64,000 bases of DNA, from positions 18,538,001 through 18,602,000 of the forward strand of contig OY740799.1 of NCBI GenBank assembly GCA_963514005.1. Reading direction: 5' to 3'. This DNA is from Raja brachyura. Its lineage: Eukaryota. A model generated the notes under the pieces. It saw nothing but the letters and a program-made list of their open reading frames with translations, did not search any database and was not told where the DNA came from. This document shows, in pieces, positions 197-57,200 of this stretch. Numbering within the stretch: position 1 is the first letter of the stretch; each line of letters begins with the position of its first letter. Both the position numbers and the translations under genes were made by a program.

Positions 197-391
197 GACT
201 ATACACCATCCTATGATATCCCGCAGAGCCAGCTGAGCATTTGGCTGATGTTAGCTAATGAGGGGATGGGCAGCAATGAAACGTTCTGCTCCATGACTCA
301 CTCGGCCATGGTGTTTGCCAAATCCGACGGTGACCGGGTTGCTGTGACTCGAGACCTGACTCTGAAACCTGGATTCCTGCTTCAATTCAAG
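197..391 (+). CDS. RELN: Reelin exon (window exon 1): [23 protein letters not shown]...GFLLQFK
   Basis: cctaag| acceptor, aag|gtattg donor; 195 nt, phase 0-0; matches start of reelin repeat 3. Confidence 0.9.
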
Positions 392-684: not shown

Positions 685-1440
685 ACATAGAAGAACACAG
701 AACAGCGTCAAGCCCTTTAACTCACTGTGTCTGTGCCAACCATGGTGTCAAGCTAAACTGCATATCTGCCTGCACGTGGTTTATATCCCTCAATTCCCTA
801 ACTGTTCATGTGTCTGTCAAATGCTTTTAAAAAGTTGCTATTGTATATGCTTCCACTATTTATTCCGGCAGTTAATGCCACACATCTACCACTCTGTGTA
901 AAACTACTTGCCATAAATCATCTTTAAACTTTTGCCCCCTCATCTTAAACCTATGCCCTGTCGTGTTTGACAGCTCCACATTGGGAAAGACTCTGACAAT
1001 TCATCCTGTAGAAGGGTCTCGACACGAAACGTCGCCTATCTCCTTCGCTCCTTAGATGCTGCTGCACCCGCTGAGTTTCTCCAGCCTTTTGTGTACCCTC
1101 ATCCTGTATATATGTCTCTCATAATGTTATATACTTCTATCAGGGCACCCTTCAACGTTCCGGACAAAACAATCTACATTTGCCTAACATCCTCTTACGA
1201 CCAATAGTCTCCAATTTAGCGCCATCTCCAAAGCCTCTATATCCTTCCTGTAATGCAGTGACCAGAACTGCGCACAATACTCCAATATAGCCGAACCAAA
1301 GTTTTATACAGCTGCACCATGACTTCCCAACTTTTATACTCAACATCCAACCAATGAAGACAAGCATGCTGTCGCCTGCTTTACCACCCTATCAACTTAT
1401 GTTGCCACTTTCAGGGAATTATGGATTTGCACCCCAAGAC
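685..1440 (-). mobile_element. Degenerate CR1-clade LINE 3' fragment, interrupted by a short Penelope insertion at 1011-1098
   Basis: Resembles other CR1 3' ends in the window (accagaactgcgcacaatactcc, i.e. reverse of the LEYCVQFW region; catagaa-type tail). Boundaries are approximate. Confidence 0.6.
1011..1098 (+). mobile_element. 88-bp Penelope-like 3'-terminal insertion
   Basis: Near-identical to the reverse complement of 1465-1553. Flanked by a 10-bp direct repeat tcatcctgta (1001-1010, 1099-1108). Confidence 0.8.
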
Positions 1441-1529
1441 AAACTAGTTTGTTACTGATTACAGGGTTACACAAAAAGCTGGAGAAACTCAGCGGGTGCA
1501 GCAGCATCTAAGGAGCGAAGGAGATAGGC

Positions 1530-1557
1530 GACGTTTCGGGTCGAGACCCTTCTTCAG
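1530..1557 (-). ncRNA. Putative minimal hammerhead ribozyme core in the Penelope terminal repeat
   Basis: Minus strand reads CUGAAGA-A-GGGUCUCGACCC-GAAAC-GUC: CUGANGA box, stem II hairpin, GAAA box, GUC triplet. Stems I and III are minimal. Confidence 0.6.
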
Positions 1558-1787
1558 ACTGGTCAGGGATCAGGGAAACGAGAGATATAAACAGTGATGT
1601 GGAGAGATAAGGAACAATGAGTGAAAGATATGCAAAAAAGTATTGGTGACAAAGGAAGCAGGCCATTGTAAGCTGTTTGTGGTGTGAAAATGAGAAGCTA
1701 GTGCGACTGGCGAGGGGGGGGGGGGAGATGGAGAAGGAATGTCAGGGCCAGAGGGCTGAGGGAGAGGTGGGGGGGAGGCAGTCTGGG

Positions 1788-3597
1788 TTAACAGAATTGA
1801 GAAAATTCAATGTTTAAGCCCAGAGGATGCAGACTCCCCAAGCGGAATATGAGGTGCTGTTCCTCCAACTTGCGGTGTTGATCACTCTGGCCGTGGAGGA
1901 GGCCCAGGACCGAGAGGTCGGATACGCAGTGGGAGGGGGAGTTGAAGTGCTGAGCCACCGGGAGGTCGGGTTGGTTATTGCGGACTGAGCGGAGGTGTTC
2001 GGCGAAACGATCGCCCAGCCTCCGCTTGGTCTCACCGATGTAGATCAGCTGGCATCTGGAGCAACGGATGCAGTAGATGAGGTTGGAGGAGGTGCAGGTG
2101 AACCTCTGTCGGACTTGGAATGACTGCTTGGGTCCCTGAAAGGAGTGGATGGGGGAAGTGAAGGGACAAGTGTAGCATCTCTTGCGGTTGCAAGGGAAAG
2201 TGCCCGGGGAAGGAGTGGAGCGGGAGGGAAGGGAAGAATTGACGAGGGAGTTGCGGAGGGAGCGGTCTTTGCGGAAGGCAGACGGGGGGAGATGGGAAGA
2301 TGTGGCGAGTGGAGGGGTCACGTTGGAGGTGACGAAACTGGCGGAGGACTATCTGTTGTATGCGTTGGCTGGTGGGGTGAAAGGTGAGGACCAGGGGGAC
2401 TCGGCCCTTGTTGTGAGTGGGGGAATGGGGAGAGAGGGCAGTGTTGCGGGGTATGGAGGAGACCCTGGTGCGAGCCTCATCTATAGTGGGGGAGGGGAAA
2501 CCCGTTCTCTGAAGAACGAGGACATTTGCGATGACCTGGTGTGGAACACGTCATCCTGGGAGCAGATGCGGCGTAGACGGAGGAATTGGGAATAGGGGAT
2601 GGAGTCCTTACAGGAAGCAGGGTGGGAGGAAGAGTAGTCCAGGTAGCTGTGGGAGTCAGTTGGTTTGTAGTGGATGTCAGTCAGGAGTGTATCACCTGCA
2701 ATAGAGATGGTGAGGTCAAGGAATGGTAGGGAAATGTCGGAAATGGGCCAAGTATATTTGAGTGCCGGATGGAAGTTGGTGGTGAAATGGATGAAGTCAG
2801 TCAGTTCTGCGTGGGTGCAGGAGGTGACACCAAAGCAGTCGTCAATGTAACGGAGGTAAAGGTCGGGGGTGGGGCCCTGGTACGCCGAGAACAAAGATTG
2901 TTCGACGTGCCCGACAAAGAGGCAGGCGTAGCTAGGGCCCATGCGTGTGCCCATAGCTACGCCTTGTGTTTGGAGGAAATGGGAGGAGTCAAAAGAAAAG
3001 TTGTTGAGGGTAAGGACCAACTCTGCTAGGCGGAGGAGGGTGTCAGTGGATGGGTATGGGTTGCTCCTCTGGTCGAGGAAGTACCGGAGGGCTTTGAGAC
3101 CATCCTGGTGGGGGATGCAGGTGTATAGTGACTGGACGTCCATGGTGAAGATGAGAGGATGGGGGCCTGGACAACGGAATGTGCGGAGCCGACGGAGAGT
3201 GTCTGAGGTGTCTTGAACATAGGTGGGGAGGGATTTAACAAAGGGGGATAGGATGGAGTCAAGGTATGTGGAAATGTGTTCGGTGGGGCACGAACAGGCA
3301 GAGACAATGGGTCTGCCGGGGCAGTCGGGTTTGTGGATTTTGGGGAGAAGGTAAAATCGGGCTGTGCGGGGCTGGGGAACGATGAGGTTGGAGGCTCGGG
3401 GGGGTAGGGAGCCGGAGTTGATGAAGCCGGTTATGGTGCTCGAGATGGTGGCCTGGTGCTCGTCAGTGGGGTCATGGTCCAGGGGTAAGTAGGAGGAGGT
3501 GTCCGAGAGTTGGCGCGTGGCCTCTGCTTTGTAGAGATCGACGCGCCAGACTACCACAGCACCTCCCTTGTCGGCGGGTTTGATAACCCAGTCTGGG
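1788..3597 (-). pseudogene. Penelope RT/endonuclease ORF broken by two compensating frameshifts (~2501 and ~2285)
   Basis: ORFs 2481..3557 and 1788..2321 are in the same frame. The linker FPSPTIDEARTRV...RVPLVLTFHP...DPSTRHIFP lies in a shifted frame between them. Confidence 0.85.
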
Positions 3598-5527
3598 TTG
3601 TTACTGATTACAGATTGAAATAGTCTTCATGGTCATATATATAGTTGGGAATGTAGGTTCAGGGCTTAAGGGGAAAGCAACATGTAGTGCAGTTCATGTA
3701 TTGGGCAGCAGCTGTTTGGTCAGTTCTACTATAGTTCAACCTGTTCATTGCCACCCCAAGTATACTCGGGTCATGGCCAATAGTTTTTAAAAAAACTTGG
3801 CAGTGAACGGGTTAAAGGAAACCAAGATATAATCAACACTGCATTAGGTCTGAGGTAAATGGATAGTGGCTGAATCATGTTGTGATTCATAATAAACACA
3901 ATGCATCCATCTGAAATTGTTTTCTGCAGGCTTTGAATGAAGGTTTTAATCTTCCTATTTAAAAGGCCTAAAATAGTTGGCATAAGAATTGCTAGATACT
4001 ATATAAAAGGAAGGATCACATTGGGAGGGTTGAATGCAGTTTTGACCTGTGTCACTGCAAGGTCCTTGTTGCATCTGGTCGAATGGCTTTGTCCATTCCC
4101 TAATGTCTATTCATTTCACGACAAATATTGCTACTACAGGATTTAGATGGTAAGCCATTGCAGTTAAAATTTGGTGGAATTGTTCTCATTTTGAAACGAT
4201 TATACCTCATCCCCATTTTTTAAGCAGTTGACGCGATGCTGTCACTGTTATGTGATACACAGGACAGGCGCATATAATTGAAAATTAATGAACTGTGCAG
4301 AAATTTCTGATCAATGTATAACAGGCGAGAGCTGAATAATTGAAAGCTTGTAAAATAATGAAAGGCTACAGAGGTGAACAGCTGATTCATTGCCACAGAT
4401 CAGTTTTCCTCACAACCCAGATTTACCGCCAGTTCCTTGATATTTGTCAAAAGGGGTTTTCATCCGTTTAGTTGTTTGGATACTAAAGTTTGACAATCTG
4501 AGTTTGATGATCAAATACAAAGATTTTTTTTCCTCTGAGATGCTAATGGTATTTCCTCAATAAGTTCCAAAGCATTCTCCAACCAATTAATAACACAAAC
4601 AAAGATTTTAGTTTAGTTTAATTTAGTTTAGTTGATTATTATCACGCGTGCCAAGGTACAGTGAAGAGCCCATTTCAATCATTCCACTCTATATATTTCC
4701 AATATGAGACCACAACAAATGGACTCCCTTAACGTATATGTTTTTATTTTGTTTTTCACATCATGCATTGAGATTATTTCCAGAATATAAGATAATGGAG
4801 ATGAATCATTGCACCTTAAACTATGGACAACACTTGCAGATGAATGATTAATTTACACAACATTTCTCCATCTAGCATTTTAAAAGGCTCTCCAAATCTA
4901 TTCTGATAGAGGTGAGCGATCCATTAAAGCAGCGCAGAGGAATGTCATAAAAATACTGAGTATTCATCTACAAATATTGCCAGCGTCTAGTTCAAACATT
5001 TTTGGAGCTGAGTTTTTAACATATAATGCAGTAGTGCTGGGTTTGATCCTGAACTCTCTGCCAATACAATGTGACATGGAAGTACAGGTTCCCTGGGTGA
5101 ACTTTCAATGTTGACTGGAGTTTTCCAGCAATGATAGTCCCACTTGCAATTGAAAGGAACGTTCTAAACTGTTCTAAGTTCTCTGACGTGGCTTATGGTC
5201 ACCCTAAGCCACATCAGAGGTTAAGTGGAAATAAATTAAATGGAATAGAAATTGTACTCATTTTGAAATTGGGCAAAAGCAGTTTGAGCTGAACCCTAAA
5301 ACCAGGCTAAATTGAATTACCTTAAATCTATTCCTATTAAATCCTGCCCCTCTCACCTTATGGTGAAAGAGGACAATTAATATTCACGTATCTCAATCCT
5401 TTACCAGCATAATCTATTACATCAAGTTCACTCCCTTCCTTGCTGCAGGACAGGCATGGTTGTATGTGTGGCTTTCGGATGTTTTTGCCCAGGGAGGATT
5501 TAATTTTTCACATCTGGGACTTTTCAG

Positions 5528-10382: not shown

Positions 10383-11129
10383 GGTACACAAAAGGCTGGA
10401 GAAACTCAGCGGGTGCAGCAGCATCTATGGAGTGAAGGAGATAGGCAACGTTTTGGGCCGAAACCCTTCTTCAGACTGATGGGAGGTGGGGGGAGGCAGG
10501 GGGAAGAAAAGAAAAAGGAGGAGGAGGAGCCTGAGGGCTGAGGGAGAGGTAGAAAGGGGAGGAGACAGCAAGGGTTAACAGAATTGAGAGAATTCGATGT
10601 TCATGCCGAGAGGATGCAGTCTCCCCAAGCGGAATATGAGGTGCTGTTCCTCCAATTTGCGGTGTTGCTCACTCTGGCCATGGAGGAGGCCCAGGACAGA
10701 GAGGTCGGATACGGAATGGGAGGGGGAGTTGAAGTGCTGAACCACCAGGAGGTCAGGTTGGTAAATGCGGACCGAGCGGAGGTGTTCGGCGAAACGATCG
10801 CCAAGCCTCCACTTGGTCTCACCGATATAGATCAGTTGACATCTAGAGCAGCGGATGCCATAGATGCGGTTGGAGGAGGTGCAGGTGAACCTCTGTTGGA
10901 CCCTTGATGACATCCCTCCCCTTCCTACCTCTCTCTCAGCCCTCGGGCTCCTTCTTCCCCCTTTTTCCTTTCTTCCCCCCGCCTCCCCCCATCCCCCCAT
11001 CAGTCTGAAGAAGGGTTTCGGCCTGAAACTTTGCCTATCTCCTTAGCTCCATAGATGCTGCTGCACCCGCTGAGTTTCTCCAGCATTTCGTGTGCCCTCG
11101 ATTTTCCAGCATCTGCAGTTCCTTCTTTA
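10383..11129 (-). mobile_element. Truncated Penelope-like element with GIY-YIG remnant and an inverted terminal copy
   Basis: ORF 10575..11000 ends in ...IYIGETKWRLGDRFAEH...NIEFSQFC. 10385-10560 is inverted relative to 10915-11095. 14-bp TSD agaccaagatcctt at 10369-10382 and 11130-11143. Confidence 0.85.
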
Positions 11130-11330
11130 AGACCAAGATCCTTCTTTGACTGAAGAATGGTATTGACCCAAAACTGTGCCTGTCTATTTCCTTCACGGGT
11201 GTATAAAAATACTTTGGTCCTGATTCGTCATTTGTAGCTTTGTCTTTCTTTTGCTCTAGTCAATTATTTCACTCTCAGGATGATTGCTAATGGTGGAGTC
11301 CGTACGCATGCAAACGAGTCCTGGTTTTAA

Positions 11331-13498: not shown

Positions 13499-13944
13499 GG
13501 TTACACAAAAAGCTGGAGAAACTCAGCGGGTGCAGCAGCATCTAAGGAGCGAAGGAGATAGGCGACGTTTCGGGCCGAGACCCTTCTTCAGACTGGTCAG
13601 GGATCAGGGAAACGAGAGATATAAACAGTGATGTGGAGAGATAAAGAACAATGAATGAAAGATATGCAAAAAAGTATTGATGATAAAGGAAACAGGCCAT
13701 TGTAAGCTGTTTGTGGTGTGAAAATGAGAAGCTAGTGCGACTGGGGTGGGGGGGGGGGGGGAGATGGAGGAGGAATGTCAGGGCCCGAGGGCTGAGGGAG
13801 AGGTGGGAAGGGGAGGAGGCAGCCAGGGTTAACAGAATTGAGAAAATTCAATGTTTAAGCCCAGAGGATGCAGACTCCCCAAGCGGAATATGAGGTGCTG
13901 TTCCTCCAACTTACACAACCTCCTCTCTAACTGTTTCCCTACGA
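13499..13944 (-). mobile_element. Short Penelope-like 3' fragment, same young family as 1465-3597
   Basis: 13499-13912 is near-identical to 1465-1871 and starts at the same terminus ggttacacaaaaagctgg. 14-bp TSD ctatcagtggtgat at 13485-13498 and 13945-13958. Confidence 0.88.
13564..13591 (-). ncRNA. Putative minimal hammerhead ribozyme core (second intact copy)
   Basis: Minus strand reads CUGAAGA-A-GGGUCUCGGCCC-GAAAC-GUC; stem II is kept through a G-U wobble. Confidence 0.58.
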
Positions 13945-18618: not shown

Positions 18619-19439
18619 GTAAGTCTGCGAAGACATAAGCACGCAATCGGGAATGGGGAAACAGTGGGCAAGACCAATGAGCGCATTGGCCTCGCAAATC
18701 AAATAATCACTTTAAGGATACACGCATGTCTATGTGTGTATGTGTACTTCAGTGTACAGATGGCTTACTTCAAATTTCTTCATGGGATGATTTAGGAACA
18801 GGGAAATTACATTCAATCACTCAAACATGTGCTGCTCTGCAGTTAGATCATGGCAGATCCTGTTTTTAATTTCTTCAATCACTACTGATTCCTTATCCCT
18901 GCCTGACATAAATCCATAAACCTCACTTTTGGCATTTTCATTTGACCCACCCCCTCCTCCCCTCCCCCTCGCCCAGCCAAAACAAATTTCAACTGGGTGA
19001 AGAAGTGTTCCCAAGTTATTTTCTACTACCCTGCCACACAAAGTAATTTATCAGCCATATCGATTTCAATAATCATCTTGACCACCTATATTATTCATAT
19101 ATTTCTCATGACACAGAAGAAGGCTATTCAGCCCATTGAATCTCTGCCAGCTCTCAGAATAAACTCGTCAATCCCAATGTCATGGGTTATTTCCTCTAAG
19201 CCTTTTCCCCCTCACATCCTCATTCTTCTTATCGAGTCCACACACAAGATTAGAAGTTGTTCAGCCAGAGCTGAACACTCTTCTCGGTATCTGCATACAA
19301 TGGTGTCAGTCTTGCGCTTCTTGTGCTTCTTGTGCGTGGTGGTGGAAAGATTGGTGAAAACAGGGCTGCGACGTGAACGCTCTTTCCTTGACCCCCTCAT
19401 CCTCATTAACTGCCCCCAATCCACCAGCATCCGCTTCCA

Positions 19440-20073: not shown

Positions 20074-22999
20074 GTGAGTATGAAAGCATCGATCTAATTG
20101 TGACACCGATGTAAGGCAGGAAGCCATTTTCTGCCGCTGACTGCAAATAATTAGAATTCATCCTGATACAATATCAGGTCTAAAACAGATTGAGAAAAGT
20201 TTTCATTATTATTCATTACAGATTACAGAGTGGTGTATATTAACTGTTGACTAATGTATCCCATGACAAACTAATCCCAAAAGGGCATCAGCCACTAATT
20301 AAAGTAACCCTGCCAGTTCATTTTTGCTATTGAACACCAACTTGCTCCATCCTGCTACAATTATAAAGAAAATGTTCATGGTTGACAAGATTTTAGATGT
20401 AAATCATTGATGGGACCATCTGCTGTAATGTGGCCTATTCAAAACTATATAATGCAGGATATTAGTCTGCTACCAAAAGATTTTAATTACATCGCCTTTA
20501 GAATGTTCTGAGATTAGTTCTTAACAATGCATTTTGTTGCAAGCCAATAATTAGAAATTCAGTAACTGGGAGCAGAGTATGATTAAGATTTGAAAAGGGA
20601 AATGATGTACGGTTAAATTTCCATTCTTTTCCTCTTTTTGTTTAAATTTAAAAGTGTTTCTCCCCTTTTACAATTGCCAACTCCCATTAGTTACAATGGA
20701 GGTAATTTTTAATTTGGCCAGTTGTATTATCTGATTCACAATGGATTGGATGCCTATTATAGAATTATTGTGAGATTATGGAAGAAGGGGTTTGCAGGTC
20801 AGTAGATGAGAATTGCTGGATGAGTGAAAGCTATTATGTAGGGATAGAAAACCAACAAACTAGGATTGGGCAGGTTATGTAGTAATTAGCAACATTCAGC
20901 CTGGTTATTTGGTTTACTTGCTTCACTCAATCCTGGCAGGTCAGGATTTTATTTCTTCTACGTTAAAGAAGGCTTGCATTTACAACCATCCTTTTTTTTA
21001 GATGCACACTGTCGCTGCAGAGTTTCAAGGAGCCGGGAGCAGTGGCTGTTGTGGTCTCAGTGCCAGCAGTTCCTAAGCGTTTTGTGACATTGAATGATTG
21101 AATGCTTCTAAGAACAGAATGGATGAAAGGCAGATTTTTTTTTTTATAATTGATACTTTTCTGGGAGTGAAACTCACTTCATCTTTGTTAATGTGTCAGA
21201 ACGGACAATGGCAGATATAATCGGGTTCATTCTCCACATCCAGAGGAATGCTTTGTGACTGGAATAGGACAGTGGGAAAGTTTGCAACCTTTACATATGC
21301 TTTGTTACACTTACATTAATGGTGGGAAATGTAAAATTTGTATTATGTTTCATAGAATTGAAACTAGATGTGGTTCAAGGCTTTTTCTGATTTTGTCTTC
21401 GGATACCTTTTTAGAAATGAATTCAAAAAATGAATTTGTACGTGATCCTAGGGATTCCAGAGCAGCAGGAAGCAGGACGTGATCAAAGCAGATAAATGAA
21501 CTGAATGCTTCCCTTCTCTGTTAGATTTCCTGCCTTTTTGTCAAGCTCCCCATGGTTTCCTGCGAGGAAGTGCTGTTAGAATGAAGGTGGAATGAAGCAT
21601 TCTCCCCAATAATCTTGTACTGTGCCTTGGGACTTGCGCTGTGTGGCACAATGCCTGACAGCATTCTGTCTGATGAACCCAAGTGAAAGGGTGGCTCGTA
21701 CTGCTGAGGGAGTGAGCAAGTCATGTCTCAACAGCTTACGAGTAGTGATTGCAGTTGCAATCTATTCTTGCAATTTGGGTATTATTACAGATTATGAAAT
21801 TGACTGAGCTGCTTGATCTGACAGTGCCTTGTAACTGCACATACAGTTACTGTCTTGTACACAAGACTTATTATTGGATAATATTAAAGAATTCTATATC
21901 AGAGATTTTTCAAATAATTGTTTACAAAGCAATAGATATCACTCCAGATGAAGGTTCTCGATCCAAAATGTCACCCATTCCTTCTCCCCAGAGATGCTGC
22001 CTGTCCCGCTGAGTTACTCCAGCTTTCAGTGTTTTATCGTAGGTGACATATCGGGTTGGAACCTTTCTTCAGACCCAGCTAATCCAGCCTTAACCATTTC
22101 ACTGGTTCCTGTACAAACCTCTCCAGTGAATAGCAGAAAAGAGCATTTATTAGCAGCAAAGACCCAAGAGCAGACAATGGGCACAAGCCACCAGAGACTG
22201 GATGCTGATGCACAGGTCACTGCTTCAGCTGCACCTACAGGAAAGCCTCCAGGAAAACAGCCGATGGATCCAGGCCAACTTTTACAGTGAGGTGGCTTCT
22301 CTAGTGAAGCTGCTGGATCTGCTGATGATTACAGCAAAGGGAACACACTTTCTTATTGCTGCTACTAAGCGCTGTCAGTTGCAGTATATCCGTCGAAAGT
22401 GGCCCCCAATCTTGCTGAGGTGTCCAGTGTTTCTGGAACAGTCCTCTGCATAGATGCCCGTTCTGGGTTCCATCATTTTGAAACCAGAATGGTTAAACAA
22501 ATAGAGCACTGCTGTCCACAGCCTATTGTTCCTGCTCCCACGGGGTGGAGATAGCAACAGAATATATGAGGTGATAAATCGAAACAACAAAGGGCTACTG
22601 ATTGCATAAAGTGATAAGAAAGGAAGGTGATGAGTGGAAGCAGACAAGGGAGGGATGCTGGTCAGAAGAGAACAGTGAGGGGTGGGGATAGGGGGCTCTT
22701 TATATTGGATATCTCCCAGTTACACCCTCAGTCCTAATGCAGGGTCTCAACCTGAAATGTTGACTAACCCTTTGCCTCCAGAGATGCTGCCTGAGCTGTT
22801 GTGTTCCTCCAGCAGTTTGTTTTTTTGCTCCAAGTGAATATTGTGCCTTGGATATTTGGACCCATATTCCGCAGAAAATGTTGCATTGATGATTGGCAAT
22901 TTGATCAGTTGGATGCGCTGATTTGCGGACTTTAGCTTGTGTGTTGACTGTGAGACTTTCATCAGGTTGTGCCTTTCACTGATGTTCTTTTGCTTGCAG

Positions 23000-33885: not shown

Positions 33886-34346
33886 TTAGGCTTTTTCAGT
33901 CCTACCTGAAACGTCATCTATCGCTTTTCTCCAGAGATGCTGTTTGACTTGCTGAGTTACTCCAGCATTTTGTGACTATCTTTGATATAAACCAGCATCT
34001 GCAGTTCCTTTTTATTACCCAATAAACATGGCTTAGTAATGAGTGTATGCAGGTACACTCCAGGTCTTCTATGTGGGTGAACTTATCCGTCCACGAAAAA
34101 TGTAGACGCACCTGGGGTAGTAAAGATGGGAAAAGGACAGATGTTGTTTCGGGTTGGGCCCTTCTTCAGACTGGAAAAGACCAGGATAGAGATCTGAAGG
34201 AGGACCCCTACCCTTCTCCCTCCACACATGCTGCCTGGCCTGCAGAGTTCCTCCAGCACTTGCCGTTTTGCTCAGCATTTACCGCTTGTTTGAAATCTTC
34301 TTTTGTTTAGCTCATGCCTGGGAAATATTACTGCTTGTTTCCACAG

Positions 34347-34567
34347 GTCAGTGCGGTTTCGCTGGTACCAGGGCTTCTACAGGCTAGGCTCTCAACCAGT
34401 GACCTGGGCCATTGATAATGTTTACATCGGGCCCCAGTGTGAGGAGATGTGTAACGGTCACGGTAGTTGCATCGGTGGAACCCACTGCATTTGTGACGCC
34501 AGGTATTCCGGGCCCACCTGCAAAATCAGCTCCAAAAATCCAGACTTCCTGAAGGGAGATTTTAAAG
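34347..34567 (+). CDS. RELN: Reelin exon 16: SVRFRWYQ...[20 protein letters not shown]...KGDFK (EGF of repeat 5)
   Basis: ccacag| ... g|gtaggt; 221 nt, phase 2-1. Confidence 0.95.
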
Positions 34568-45850: not shown

Positions 45851-46898
45851 ACAAAGAACTACAGATGTTGGTTTACCAAAAAAGAACATAAAATGCTGAA
45901 GTAACTCAGTGGGCCAGGCAGTGTCTCTGGAGAGGGAAATGCGATGTTTTGGGTCGGGACCTTTCTTCAGACTGATTGCAGTGGGTGGAATAAGTTGGGA
46001 GAGAGATGGGAGCAGGACGAACCTGGGAAGTGATAGGTGGATACCGGTGAGGCGGGCTTTCAGTGGCAGATGGTTGGACAAGGGCCAGTGATGAAAAGAC
46101 AAAAAGTGTGAGACGAGGAGGTAAAGATAGAGGAGGTGAGAGATGTAAAGTCAGCGGAAGGAATATAAGTGGATGGGGGGGAAGGGGAAAGGGAGAAATT
46201 GATGCACAAACAGGTGGGACCAGGGAAGAGAGGGAAAAAGGGGTGGGGGGAGAAAATGGCGGTGGGGTTGTTCACCTAAAAGTGGAGAATTTAATGTTCA
46301 TGATGTTGGGCTATGGGCGACCCCAAACTGAATGTGAGCTGCTGTTCCTCCAGTTTTGTGTGGCCTCACTCTGACAGTGGAGGAGGTCCAGGATAGAAAG
46401 GTGAGTATGAGAGGGGGAGTTAAAATGGTTAGCAACCTCAAAAATGCACAGGCACCTCCTCTAACTTCATCTACTGCATTTGGTGATCTCAATGTGGCAT
46501 CCTTTACTTCGGTGAGACCAAGCGTAGATTAGGCAACAGTTTTGCCGAACCTTTGCTCTCAGTCCGCTACTCCCGGACTCCCAGTTGCTAACCATTTTAA
46601 TTCCCACAACCATGTCCATGCTGACCTATCTGTCTAGCGCTGCCTCCAATGTCAGAGTGAGGCCACACATAAACTGGAGGAACAGTATCTCTATTCTGCT
46701 TGGGTAATTTACAACCCAATGGTATGAACATTAAATTATCCCATTTTAGGAAACTAATCCCCCACTTCTCTCCCCCCCCCCCCCCCCCCCCTCTCTTCCA
46801 ACTCTCTTCCCGGCTGAAGAAGAGTCCCAACCTGAAATGTCGCCTATCCATGTTCTCCAGAGACACTGCCTATCTCGCTGAGTTACTCCAGCTTTTTT
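45851..46898. mobile_element. Two older Penelope 3' fragments arranged head-to-head
   Basis: Minus-strand 3' end at 45851-46440, then a plus-strand GIY-YIG remnant (TSSNFIYCI..LYFGETKRRLG) running to a terminus at ~46898. Confidence 0.7.
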
Positions 46899-56319: not shown

Positions 56320-57200
56320 AGACACAGGGAACTGCAGATGCTAGAATCTTAAGTAGAACACAAAGTGCTGGAGTACCTCTGCAGGTCAGGCAGGATGTCC
56401 GGAGGGTATGGATGTGATGTTTCTGGTCAGGACCCTTATTCAGTCTGATCGATGTGGAGGAGAGAAAACTGGACAAGAGTTGGAGGCAGGACAAAGCCCG
56501 GCGAGTGGTAGCGGAATACAGATGAGGCGGGGATTGAGTGATTGATAGATGGACAAAGGCTGTATTTGAAAATGAGATGAAAGGGGACCAAAGGAGATAC
56601 AAGGGTGTATGTAAGGAAAGAGGAGGAGTGAAATGTGAAGCCTGAGTGGGGGAGAAAGGAGTGGGGAGAGGATGAAATAGTGGGTGAATAGGAGTGCGCC
56701 AGGTTTAGGAAAGAGAGGAGGGGAGAAGAAGAGAGACAAGCAAATGGGTGGGGCATTACCAAAAGTTGGAGAATTCAATGTTCATGCCATTAGGTTGTGG
56801 AATATGAGGTGCAATTCCTCCATTTGCATGTGGGCTCACACTGGCAATGAAGGTGGCTCAGGACAGAAATATTTAGATGGGAATGGGAGGGGAAGGGTTA
56901 ACAACCGGGAGATCTAGAAGGCCTTGATTAACGAGTGCATGTGGTTGATGAATCGGTCGCCCACTCCACACTTGGTCTCACAGATGTAAAGGAGGCTACA
57001 TTGGGAACACTGAATGCAGTAGATGAGGTTAGAGGAGGTACGTGTGAACCTCTGTCTCACATGGAAGGGCTGATAGGGCCGCGGGATGAATGTAAGGGTG
57101 GACGTGTTACATCTGCAGGATTTTACAGAGAGAGTGGTCTCTACAGAAAGGATGGGTCAGGAAGATATGTAGTGTGGTGGCATCCTGTGGAATGCCTGTA
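56320..57200 (-). mobile_element. Old Penelope-like 3' fragment with degenerate GIY-YIG region
   Basis: Terminus gggaactgcagatgct...gacccttattcagtct; aattcaatgttcatgcc and cttggtctcac...gcagtagatgaggttagaggag parallel 1800-2100. Confidence 0.65.

Follow-up and report, generated by a model that had tools for sequence, protein, structure and literature searches.

A predicted minimal hammerhead ribozyme in the terminal repeat of a young, abundant Penelope-like element family of Raja brachyura

The stretch of DNA analyzed here, referred to as the window, comprises 64,000 nucleotides of the Raja brachyura genome (contig OY740799.1, positions 18,538,001 to 18,602,000). It contains a 5'-truncated insertion of a Penelope-like element (PLE) on the minus strand at 1465-3597, flanked by a 16-bp target-site duplication (1449..1464 on the 3' side of the element and 3598..3613 on its 5' side). 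The reverse transcriptase (RT) part with its DKG motif lies at 2481..3597 (minus strand; PF00078, E 3.2e-5, below the curated cut-off); it is truncated at its 5' end, and in this copy its frame differs from that of the endonuclease part. The C-terminal part of the open reading frame (ORF), at 1788..2348 on the same strand, has a Cys linker of the form C-x4-C-x2-C and a GIY-YIG domain (PF01541, E 1.9e-4, just below the curated cut-off). It is followed by a pyrimidine-rich 3' untranslated region or upstream pLTR (1561..1787, minus strand), which contains a C-run and ends in a splice-acceptor-like polypyrimidine-CAG. The motif under study (1530..1557, minus strand) sits 233 bases beyond the stop codon of the RT/GIY-YIG frame. 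A reelin-like host exon is found at 197..391 (Reelin subrepeat B, E 6.5e-5), with the element in the next intron, and a reelin exon is found at 34348..34566 (reelin chains, E 1e-57). As both exons are on the plus strand, the window copy is antisense to the host transcript; it is a dead, frameshifted insertion and would not cut reelin pre-mRNA.

Read from 1557 to 1530, the motif has the core of a minimal type I hammerhead and fits the consensus line in supplement file 2 of PMC4209133. It consists of CUGAAGA (1557-1551), an unpaired A9.1 (1550), a 4-bp helix II made of GGGU and ACCC and capped by a CUCG loop (1549-1538), GAA (1537-1535), a palindromic zero-loop helix III, ACGU (1534-1531), and C17 (1530), with the cut predicted between 1530 and 1529. 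The pair G1549-C1538 corresponds to G10.1-C11.1. An AGU leader (1558..1560) supplies the 5' strand of helix I (U1558 and G1559), and the bases G and C at 1528..1529 supply its 3' strand. Helix I is thereby only 2 bp long (U-G or U-A, followed by G-C), and no longer register was found; position 1.1 is G or A depending on the subfamily, and both alleles pair with U2.1. The short copies of the family begin at the leader, and we infer that A1560 or G1559 is likely the transcription start. In the following, positions are counted along the sense strand of the element from C3 of CUGA (window position 1557), which is set to 0, so that the predicted cut falls between +27 and +28. The post-hammerhead segment (1465..1527, minus strand) reaches the first 3' end point of the family (+88 to +95). 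An earlier, sequence-only reading of this locus had singled out an extra A after CUGANGA and a weak stem I, from which it derived a possible need for dimerization. The extra A is present but is no oddity, being a published hallmark of such motifs (PMC4209133). Stem I is indeed 2 bp long, but the dimer requirement stems from helix III, because ACGU is palindromic and loop-less.

Several other copies of the element lie in the window. The plus strand at 1006..1098 carries a short, young copy that has a target-site duplication of its own; the junction of this copy falls inside CUGA, so its core is incomplete. A second young 5'-truncated copy (13499..13912, minus strand; 14-bp duplication) has, at its junction, sequence from the element's 5' ORF in inverted orientation and, at 13564-13591, a hammerhead with a U-G pair in helix II. 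This copy had been put forward as keeping stem II through a wobble; an A-to-G change does turn U-A into U-G, but in this copy it is a single transition. Two copies belong to a UUCG-loop subfamily (U-G closing pair, U17), one at 10385..10478 (minus strand) with a changed G12, and the other at 11001..11130 (plus strand) with a tail and a decayed helix III. The copy near 34145, previously described as having a variant stem, is instead a decayed fragment of an older subfamily (34130..34173, minus strand), in which U16.1 and one base of the stem are missing (GAAACAAC). As support for the motif, the copies at 13564 and 34145 are weak. The regions 46240-46800 and 56748-57078 contain older fragments of this element type at about 69% identity, in part inverted. 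A separate ribozyme match was noted at 19344-19407 on the minus strand, where the Rfam CPEB3 model detects an HDV-like sequence (31.3 bits, E 2.3e-4, gathering threshold 35). It heads a dispersed repeat of about 190 bp (19223-19408) with relatives in four other loci (L005, L043, L105, and L145), and this repeat is probably a ribozyme-headed short retroelement.

Of 39 loci selected because they are nearly identical to the RT, 4 contain open frames of 1,137-1,203 codons and 2 (L007 and L021) carry one motif at each end, at a spacing of 3,969 bp. The first ATG of the full-length units lies about 160 bases past the hammerhead core. At +158..+167 in L021 and L007, a donor-like AAG/GTATG overlaps this ATG, and this site and the acceptor-like CAG would delimit an exon of 160 bases. 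Among named proteins, the best relative comes from the shark Chiloscyllium punctatum (73% identity), in agreement with the assignment to a chondrichthyan Penelope lineage made from the sequence alone. The sequence-only reading was also right in placing the motif within the pLTR, the terminal repeat, of a young Penelope-like family. A Cys linker between RT and endonuclease is common to Neptune and Nematis (PMC8557442), and domain order and linker, rather than a tree, place the family as a likely Neptune-clade PLE. As in the endonuclease-positive PLEs of this clade, the RT is followed by the Cys linker and then GIY-YIG, and pLTRs, inverted 5' pieces, and an optional tail are present; unlike in those elements, the target-site duplications are clear and 8-17 bp long (PMC8557442).

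The minimal hammerheads of PLEs have a nucleotide lying between 9 and 10.1, a G10.1-C11.1 pair, and a palindromic 15.2-16.2 segment (Cervera and De la Peña 2014, PMC4209133). Here, the core CUGANGA ... GAAA ... NUH is present, as are the unpaired nucleotide between 9 and 10.1, the G10.1-C11.1 pair, the palindromic loop-less helix III, and helix I. The published motifs share with ours the elements CUGANGAH, G10.1-C11.1, and GAAA-N-palindrome-N-U-H and a short helix I, and in both cases copies are mostly solo or on opposite strands, with two per full element (PMC4209133). However, with 2 bp in helix I and 4 bp in helix II, the motif found here is at the short end of that alignment, which includes motifs with a helix I of 2 bp from elements of Drosophila, Culex, and Oikopleura (PMC4209133). 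No cartilaginous fish is among the rows in the part of the alignment covered (supplement file 2). By its sequence, the motif is the already known minimal type I hammerhead of Penelope-like elements. Identity as a hammerhead is well supported, constraint at the level of lineages is moderately supported, and cleavage is predicted.

The motif occurs far above chance. The exact 28-mer has 50,608 genome copies, while the reversed control has 0, and a descriptor of the core plus stem II (at least 3 bp) gave 54 matches in 80 unselected 10-kb loci and 0-3 in each of 10 shuffles. A loose core pattern matched 15 times in the window against 6.95 expected. With a profile, 33 relatives were detected in the window, as were 334 across the 80 unselected loci (800 kb), which extrapolates to about 1.1 million relatives in the genome. 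In contrast, the coelacanth and Xenopus have 4,000-9,000 copies, and the motif, which is uniform here, is highly variable there (PMC4209133). The Rfam hammerhead models, which had been suggested as a check, gave no match in the whole 64,000-nt window at E values up to 5.

It is of note that the core, helix II, and palindrome are all intact in only 30 of 221 unselected near-full copies. Preferential conservation of the core among young copies, which the sequence-only reading had expected, was not seen: in 26 young unselected copies, divergence was 2.3% in the core vs 2.2% in the flanks (6/259 vs 33/1481, p 0.82). Since inserted copies decay neutrally, equal decay is expected and refutes nothing, and selection is visible only in changes between master lineages. 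For alleles at this level, 304 of 456 near-full copies were compared; the other 152, young copies from selected loci, were excluded. The core is invariant in 10 subfamily clusters, CpG decay aside. Co-segregating subfamily alleles were found at 5 of 30 motif positions vs 21 of 59 tail positions (p 0.085, not significant), and at none of the 11 core bases. All five motif alleles agree with the fold: two affect loop bases, one turns U-A into U-G, one replaces C17 with U, and one concerns A or G opposite U2.1. The chance of such a pattern is about 0.009, as calculated from a post-hoc count of tolerated transitions. Two-sided covariation was not found in helix I or II within this one genome, where two one-sided compatible changes were seen. 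A metagenome pattern scan returned at least 116 loci, of which none among the matches listed fits the family profile, so that no cross-species covariation is available. When subfamilies with an extended helix I were sought, 12 matches of at least 4 bp turned up, every one of them chance junction sequence; an old window copy at 22734 hints at a longer stem but is too decayed. Predicted folding has helix II formed at about 52% in the bare motif and at less than 2% with the tail attached, and the predicted fold of the 96-nt unit hides the core in another helix (z-score 0.38).

These observations bear on whether the motif is catalytic at all. It might be non-catalytic in this lineage and retained either for use as an internal promoter or because the element's protein binds to it, its resemblance to a hammerhead being inherited. 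The helices of only 2 and 4 bp, the sequestration of the core in the predicted fold, the lack of covariation, a cut site that leaves no mark in the genome (see below), and the fact that further stretches of the tail are likewise invariant across subfamilies are all consistent with this explanation. However, the lineage changes without exception obey hammerhead rules, including C17 to U and the wobble pairs, and motifs with a 2-bp helix I are on record for the Drosophila, Culex, and Oikopleura elements mentioned above. Furthermore, the motif of PAc, a Poseidon-clade element from Anolis carolinensis, is silent alone but cuts with protein (PMC11167929). We regard a loss of catalysis as unlikely. 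In the tail that follows the hammerhead (1465-1510, minus strand, and up to +115 in L021), nested helices are predicted in which GAUGCUG pairs with CAGCAUC and the UGCUG region pairs with CAGC, and their bases are invariant across subfamilies. Located at the points where reverse transcription would start, they are a candidate site for binding of the protein that the element encodes.

The ends of insertions were mapped relative to the predicted cut. Among 172 young tail-anchored copies, the 3' end is at +88..+95 in 114 and at +126/127 in 49, the second point being the boundary of the PLE 'tail'; these ends fall 60-100 bases beyond the predicted cut. The 5' starts of 22 young copies in unselected loci are at -4..0 in 14, further upstream in 4, and at +1..+14 in 4, with none at the predicted cut. 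Genome-wide junctions were counted in 5-base windows with a pattern of three non-element letters, four free letters, and 28 exact ones. There were 16,562 junctions at -4..0, a count that pools subfamilies sharing the core, and for the young family only 397 at +17..+21, 297 at +24..+28, and 533 at +31..+35, i.e., there is no excess of starts at the cut. Young-type patterns alone gave 4,464 starts at -3 and 7,033 at -2. The lack of a genomic mark at the cut site argues that the templates are uncut, and as the short copies begin just before the motif, they were likely made from uncut RNA starting there. Assembled contigs from four putative RNA runs, in which neither strand nor transcript ends are visible, also have loose ends at the same -4..0 edge. 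Near 1846 on the minus strand lies an AT-rich spot, close to the end of the ORF, to which the hammerhead edge or tail is joined in contigs of two runs that come from different organisms; this spot may be a target within the element that is preferred.

This distribution of ends bears on the proposal that the motif cleaves itself efficiently as a dimer, frees the element from longer transcripts, and thereby defines the RNA that is copied. An intact core across subfamilies, two motifs per full-length unit, and the weak activity of the Schistosoma minimal hammerhead as a dimer (PMC4209133) speak in its favor. However, starts at the cut are fewer than in both neighboring windows, the 3' ends lie well beyond the cut, and hammerhead catalytic mutants of PAc still insert in vitro (PMC11167929), and we consider efficient dimer cleavage very unlikely.

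The base preceding the insertions was tallied by eye for the first 100 junctions listed from one contig (C1). Before -3 starts it was G in 54 cases, A in 35, and T in 11 (28 G expected, binomial p 5e-8), and before -2 starts it was G in 63, T in 28, and C in 9 (30 expected, binomial p 2e-11); G was not enriched before position-0 starts (4/32). Snap-back of the cDNA along helix I was rejected as the source of the extra G, as it predicts G at -3 and A at -4 and G is in excess at both. A set of 110 short young copies comprised 26 with a strict 8-17 bp duplication, 23 inverted ones, and 61 in which the strict finder detected no duplication. Extra bases are present in 13 of the 26 duplication-bearing copies and end in G in 9 of these 13; in at least 2 of these 9, the extra bases are themselves element pieces.

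The edge shared by the 5' ends could also be a 3' splice site, in which case splicing would give a better helix I. The pyrimidine tract and CAG immediately 5' of the motif, the retention of YCAG in 10 of 10 subfamily clusters, the donor-like site at +161, and the Drosophila virilis Penelope intron that ends at helix I (PMC4209133; PMC2377424) are in line with such a site, but the duplications of the 26 copies abut the junction or fall within a few bases of it, leaving no room for an upstream exon, the +161 donor is joined to the CAG site in 0 of 319 genomic copies, and no GT-AG joint was found among 15 of the 23 joints in contigs of the four putative RNA runs, so that splicing appears just as improbable as efficient dimer cleavage.

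The sequence upstream of these 319 copies is not element-derived in 172 cases, native in 90, an inverted piece in 46, and another direct piece in 11. The inverted pieces form head-to-head pairs joined at the -4..0 edge (e.g., C1:272160-272216 in the genome), i.e., fold-back palindromes centered on the 5' boundary of the hammerhead. A non-LTR retrozyme was rejected as the source of the short copies, since head-to-tail arrays are absent among these copies. Retrozymes and the short copies are alike in being non-coding, hammerhead-bearing, and PLE-derived (bioRxiv 10.64898/2026.07.22.740005; PMC7229834). However, retrozymes are tandem arrays by definition, whereas the short copies are dispersed, single or inverted, and match the terminus of the autonomous element itself (bioRxiv 10.64898/2026.07.22.740005). 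Hammerhead retrozymes have been reported in one chondrichthyan genome (bioRxiv 10.64898/2026.07.22.740005). Our literature search found no paper devoted to PLE hammerheads of sharks or rays or to the 5' pile-up.

Taken together, the reading that we favor as probable is that a Penelope-like family, which is young, very abundant, and likely of the Neptune clade, carries a minimal type I hammerhead in its terminal repeat; the hammerhead is likely the 5' tip of the capped RNA, is predicted to cut weakly, as a dimer or with the help of protein, and the RNA that is copied is likely uncut. Transcription would start at A(-3) or G(-2), placing the hammerhead right at the 5' end of the capped RNA. The sequence CCAGTCT at the start point fits YYANWYY, the initiator consensus. 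A helix I of 2 bp would be explained by such a start, as the 5' copy would have no further leader. Reverse transcription would begin internally, at RNA position +93 or +127. Starting in the 3' repeat, it would produce long 5'-truncated copies such as that in the window, while starting in the 5' repeat it would run off the RNA end after 95-130 bases, often adding a C opposite the cap. Reverse transcriptases can copy the RNA cap as G, a point for which a literature search returned no passage.

The proposed mechanism resembles that of PAc, for which uncut RNA is the main substrate and the hammerhead, located in the pLTR, cuts only with protein (PMC11167929). In PAc, as proposed here, RT starts internally at two sites 30-40 bases apart, which in PAc are tied to a two-site pattern of 3' ends and give the 'tail' (PMC11167929). 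In contrast, the ORF of PAc starts at stem II and not about 160 bases past the core, the Neptune/Nematis Cys linker is present in the protein described here, and the pile-up of 5' ends before the core has no counterpart in the part of PMC11167929 covered. A tentative extension of the preferred reading, which we consider possible though rather doubtful, is that a large share of the approximately one million relatives are integrated 'strong-stop' cDNAs of uncut RNA and that the ribozyme, as the capped 5' tip, is a protein-triggered off-switch, which would remove the cap and the first 30 bases and so limit the element's own translation and copying.

In summary, the motif itself is ordinary within its class, and the pattern of insertion starts is a modest mechanistic clue. 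A unit present in about a million copies matters for repeat annotation. Near-identical copies in the thousands together with intact frames provide a natural read-out of the debated role of the Penelope hammerhead (PMC8557442, PMC11167929). Since insertions ignore the cut and instead mark a start 2-3 bases before the core, the purpose of the ribozyme becomes directly testable in this family.
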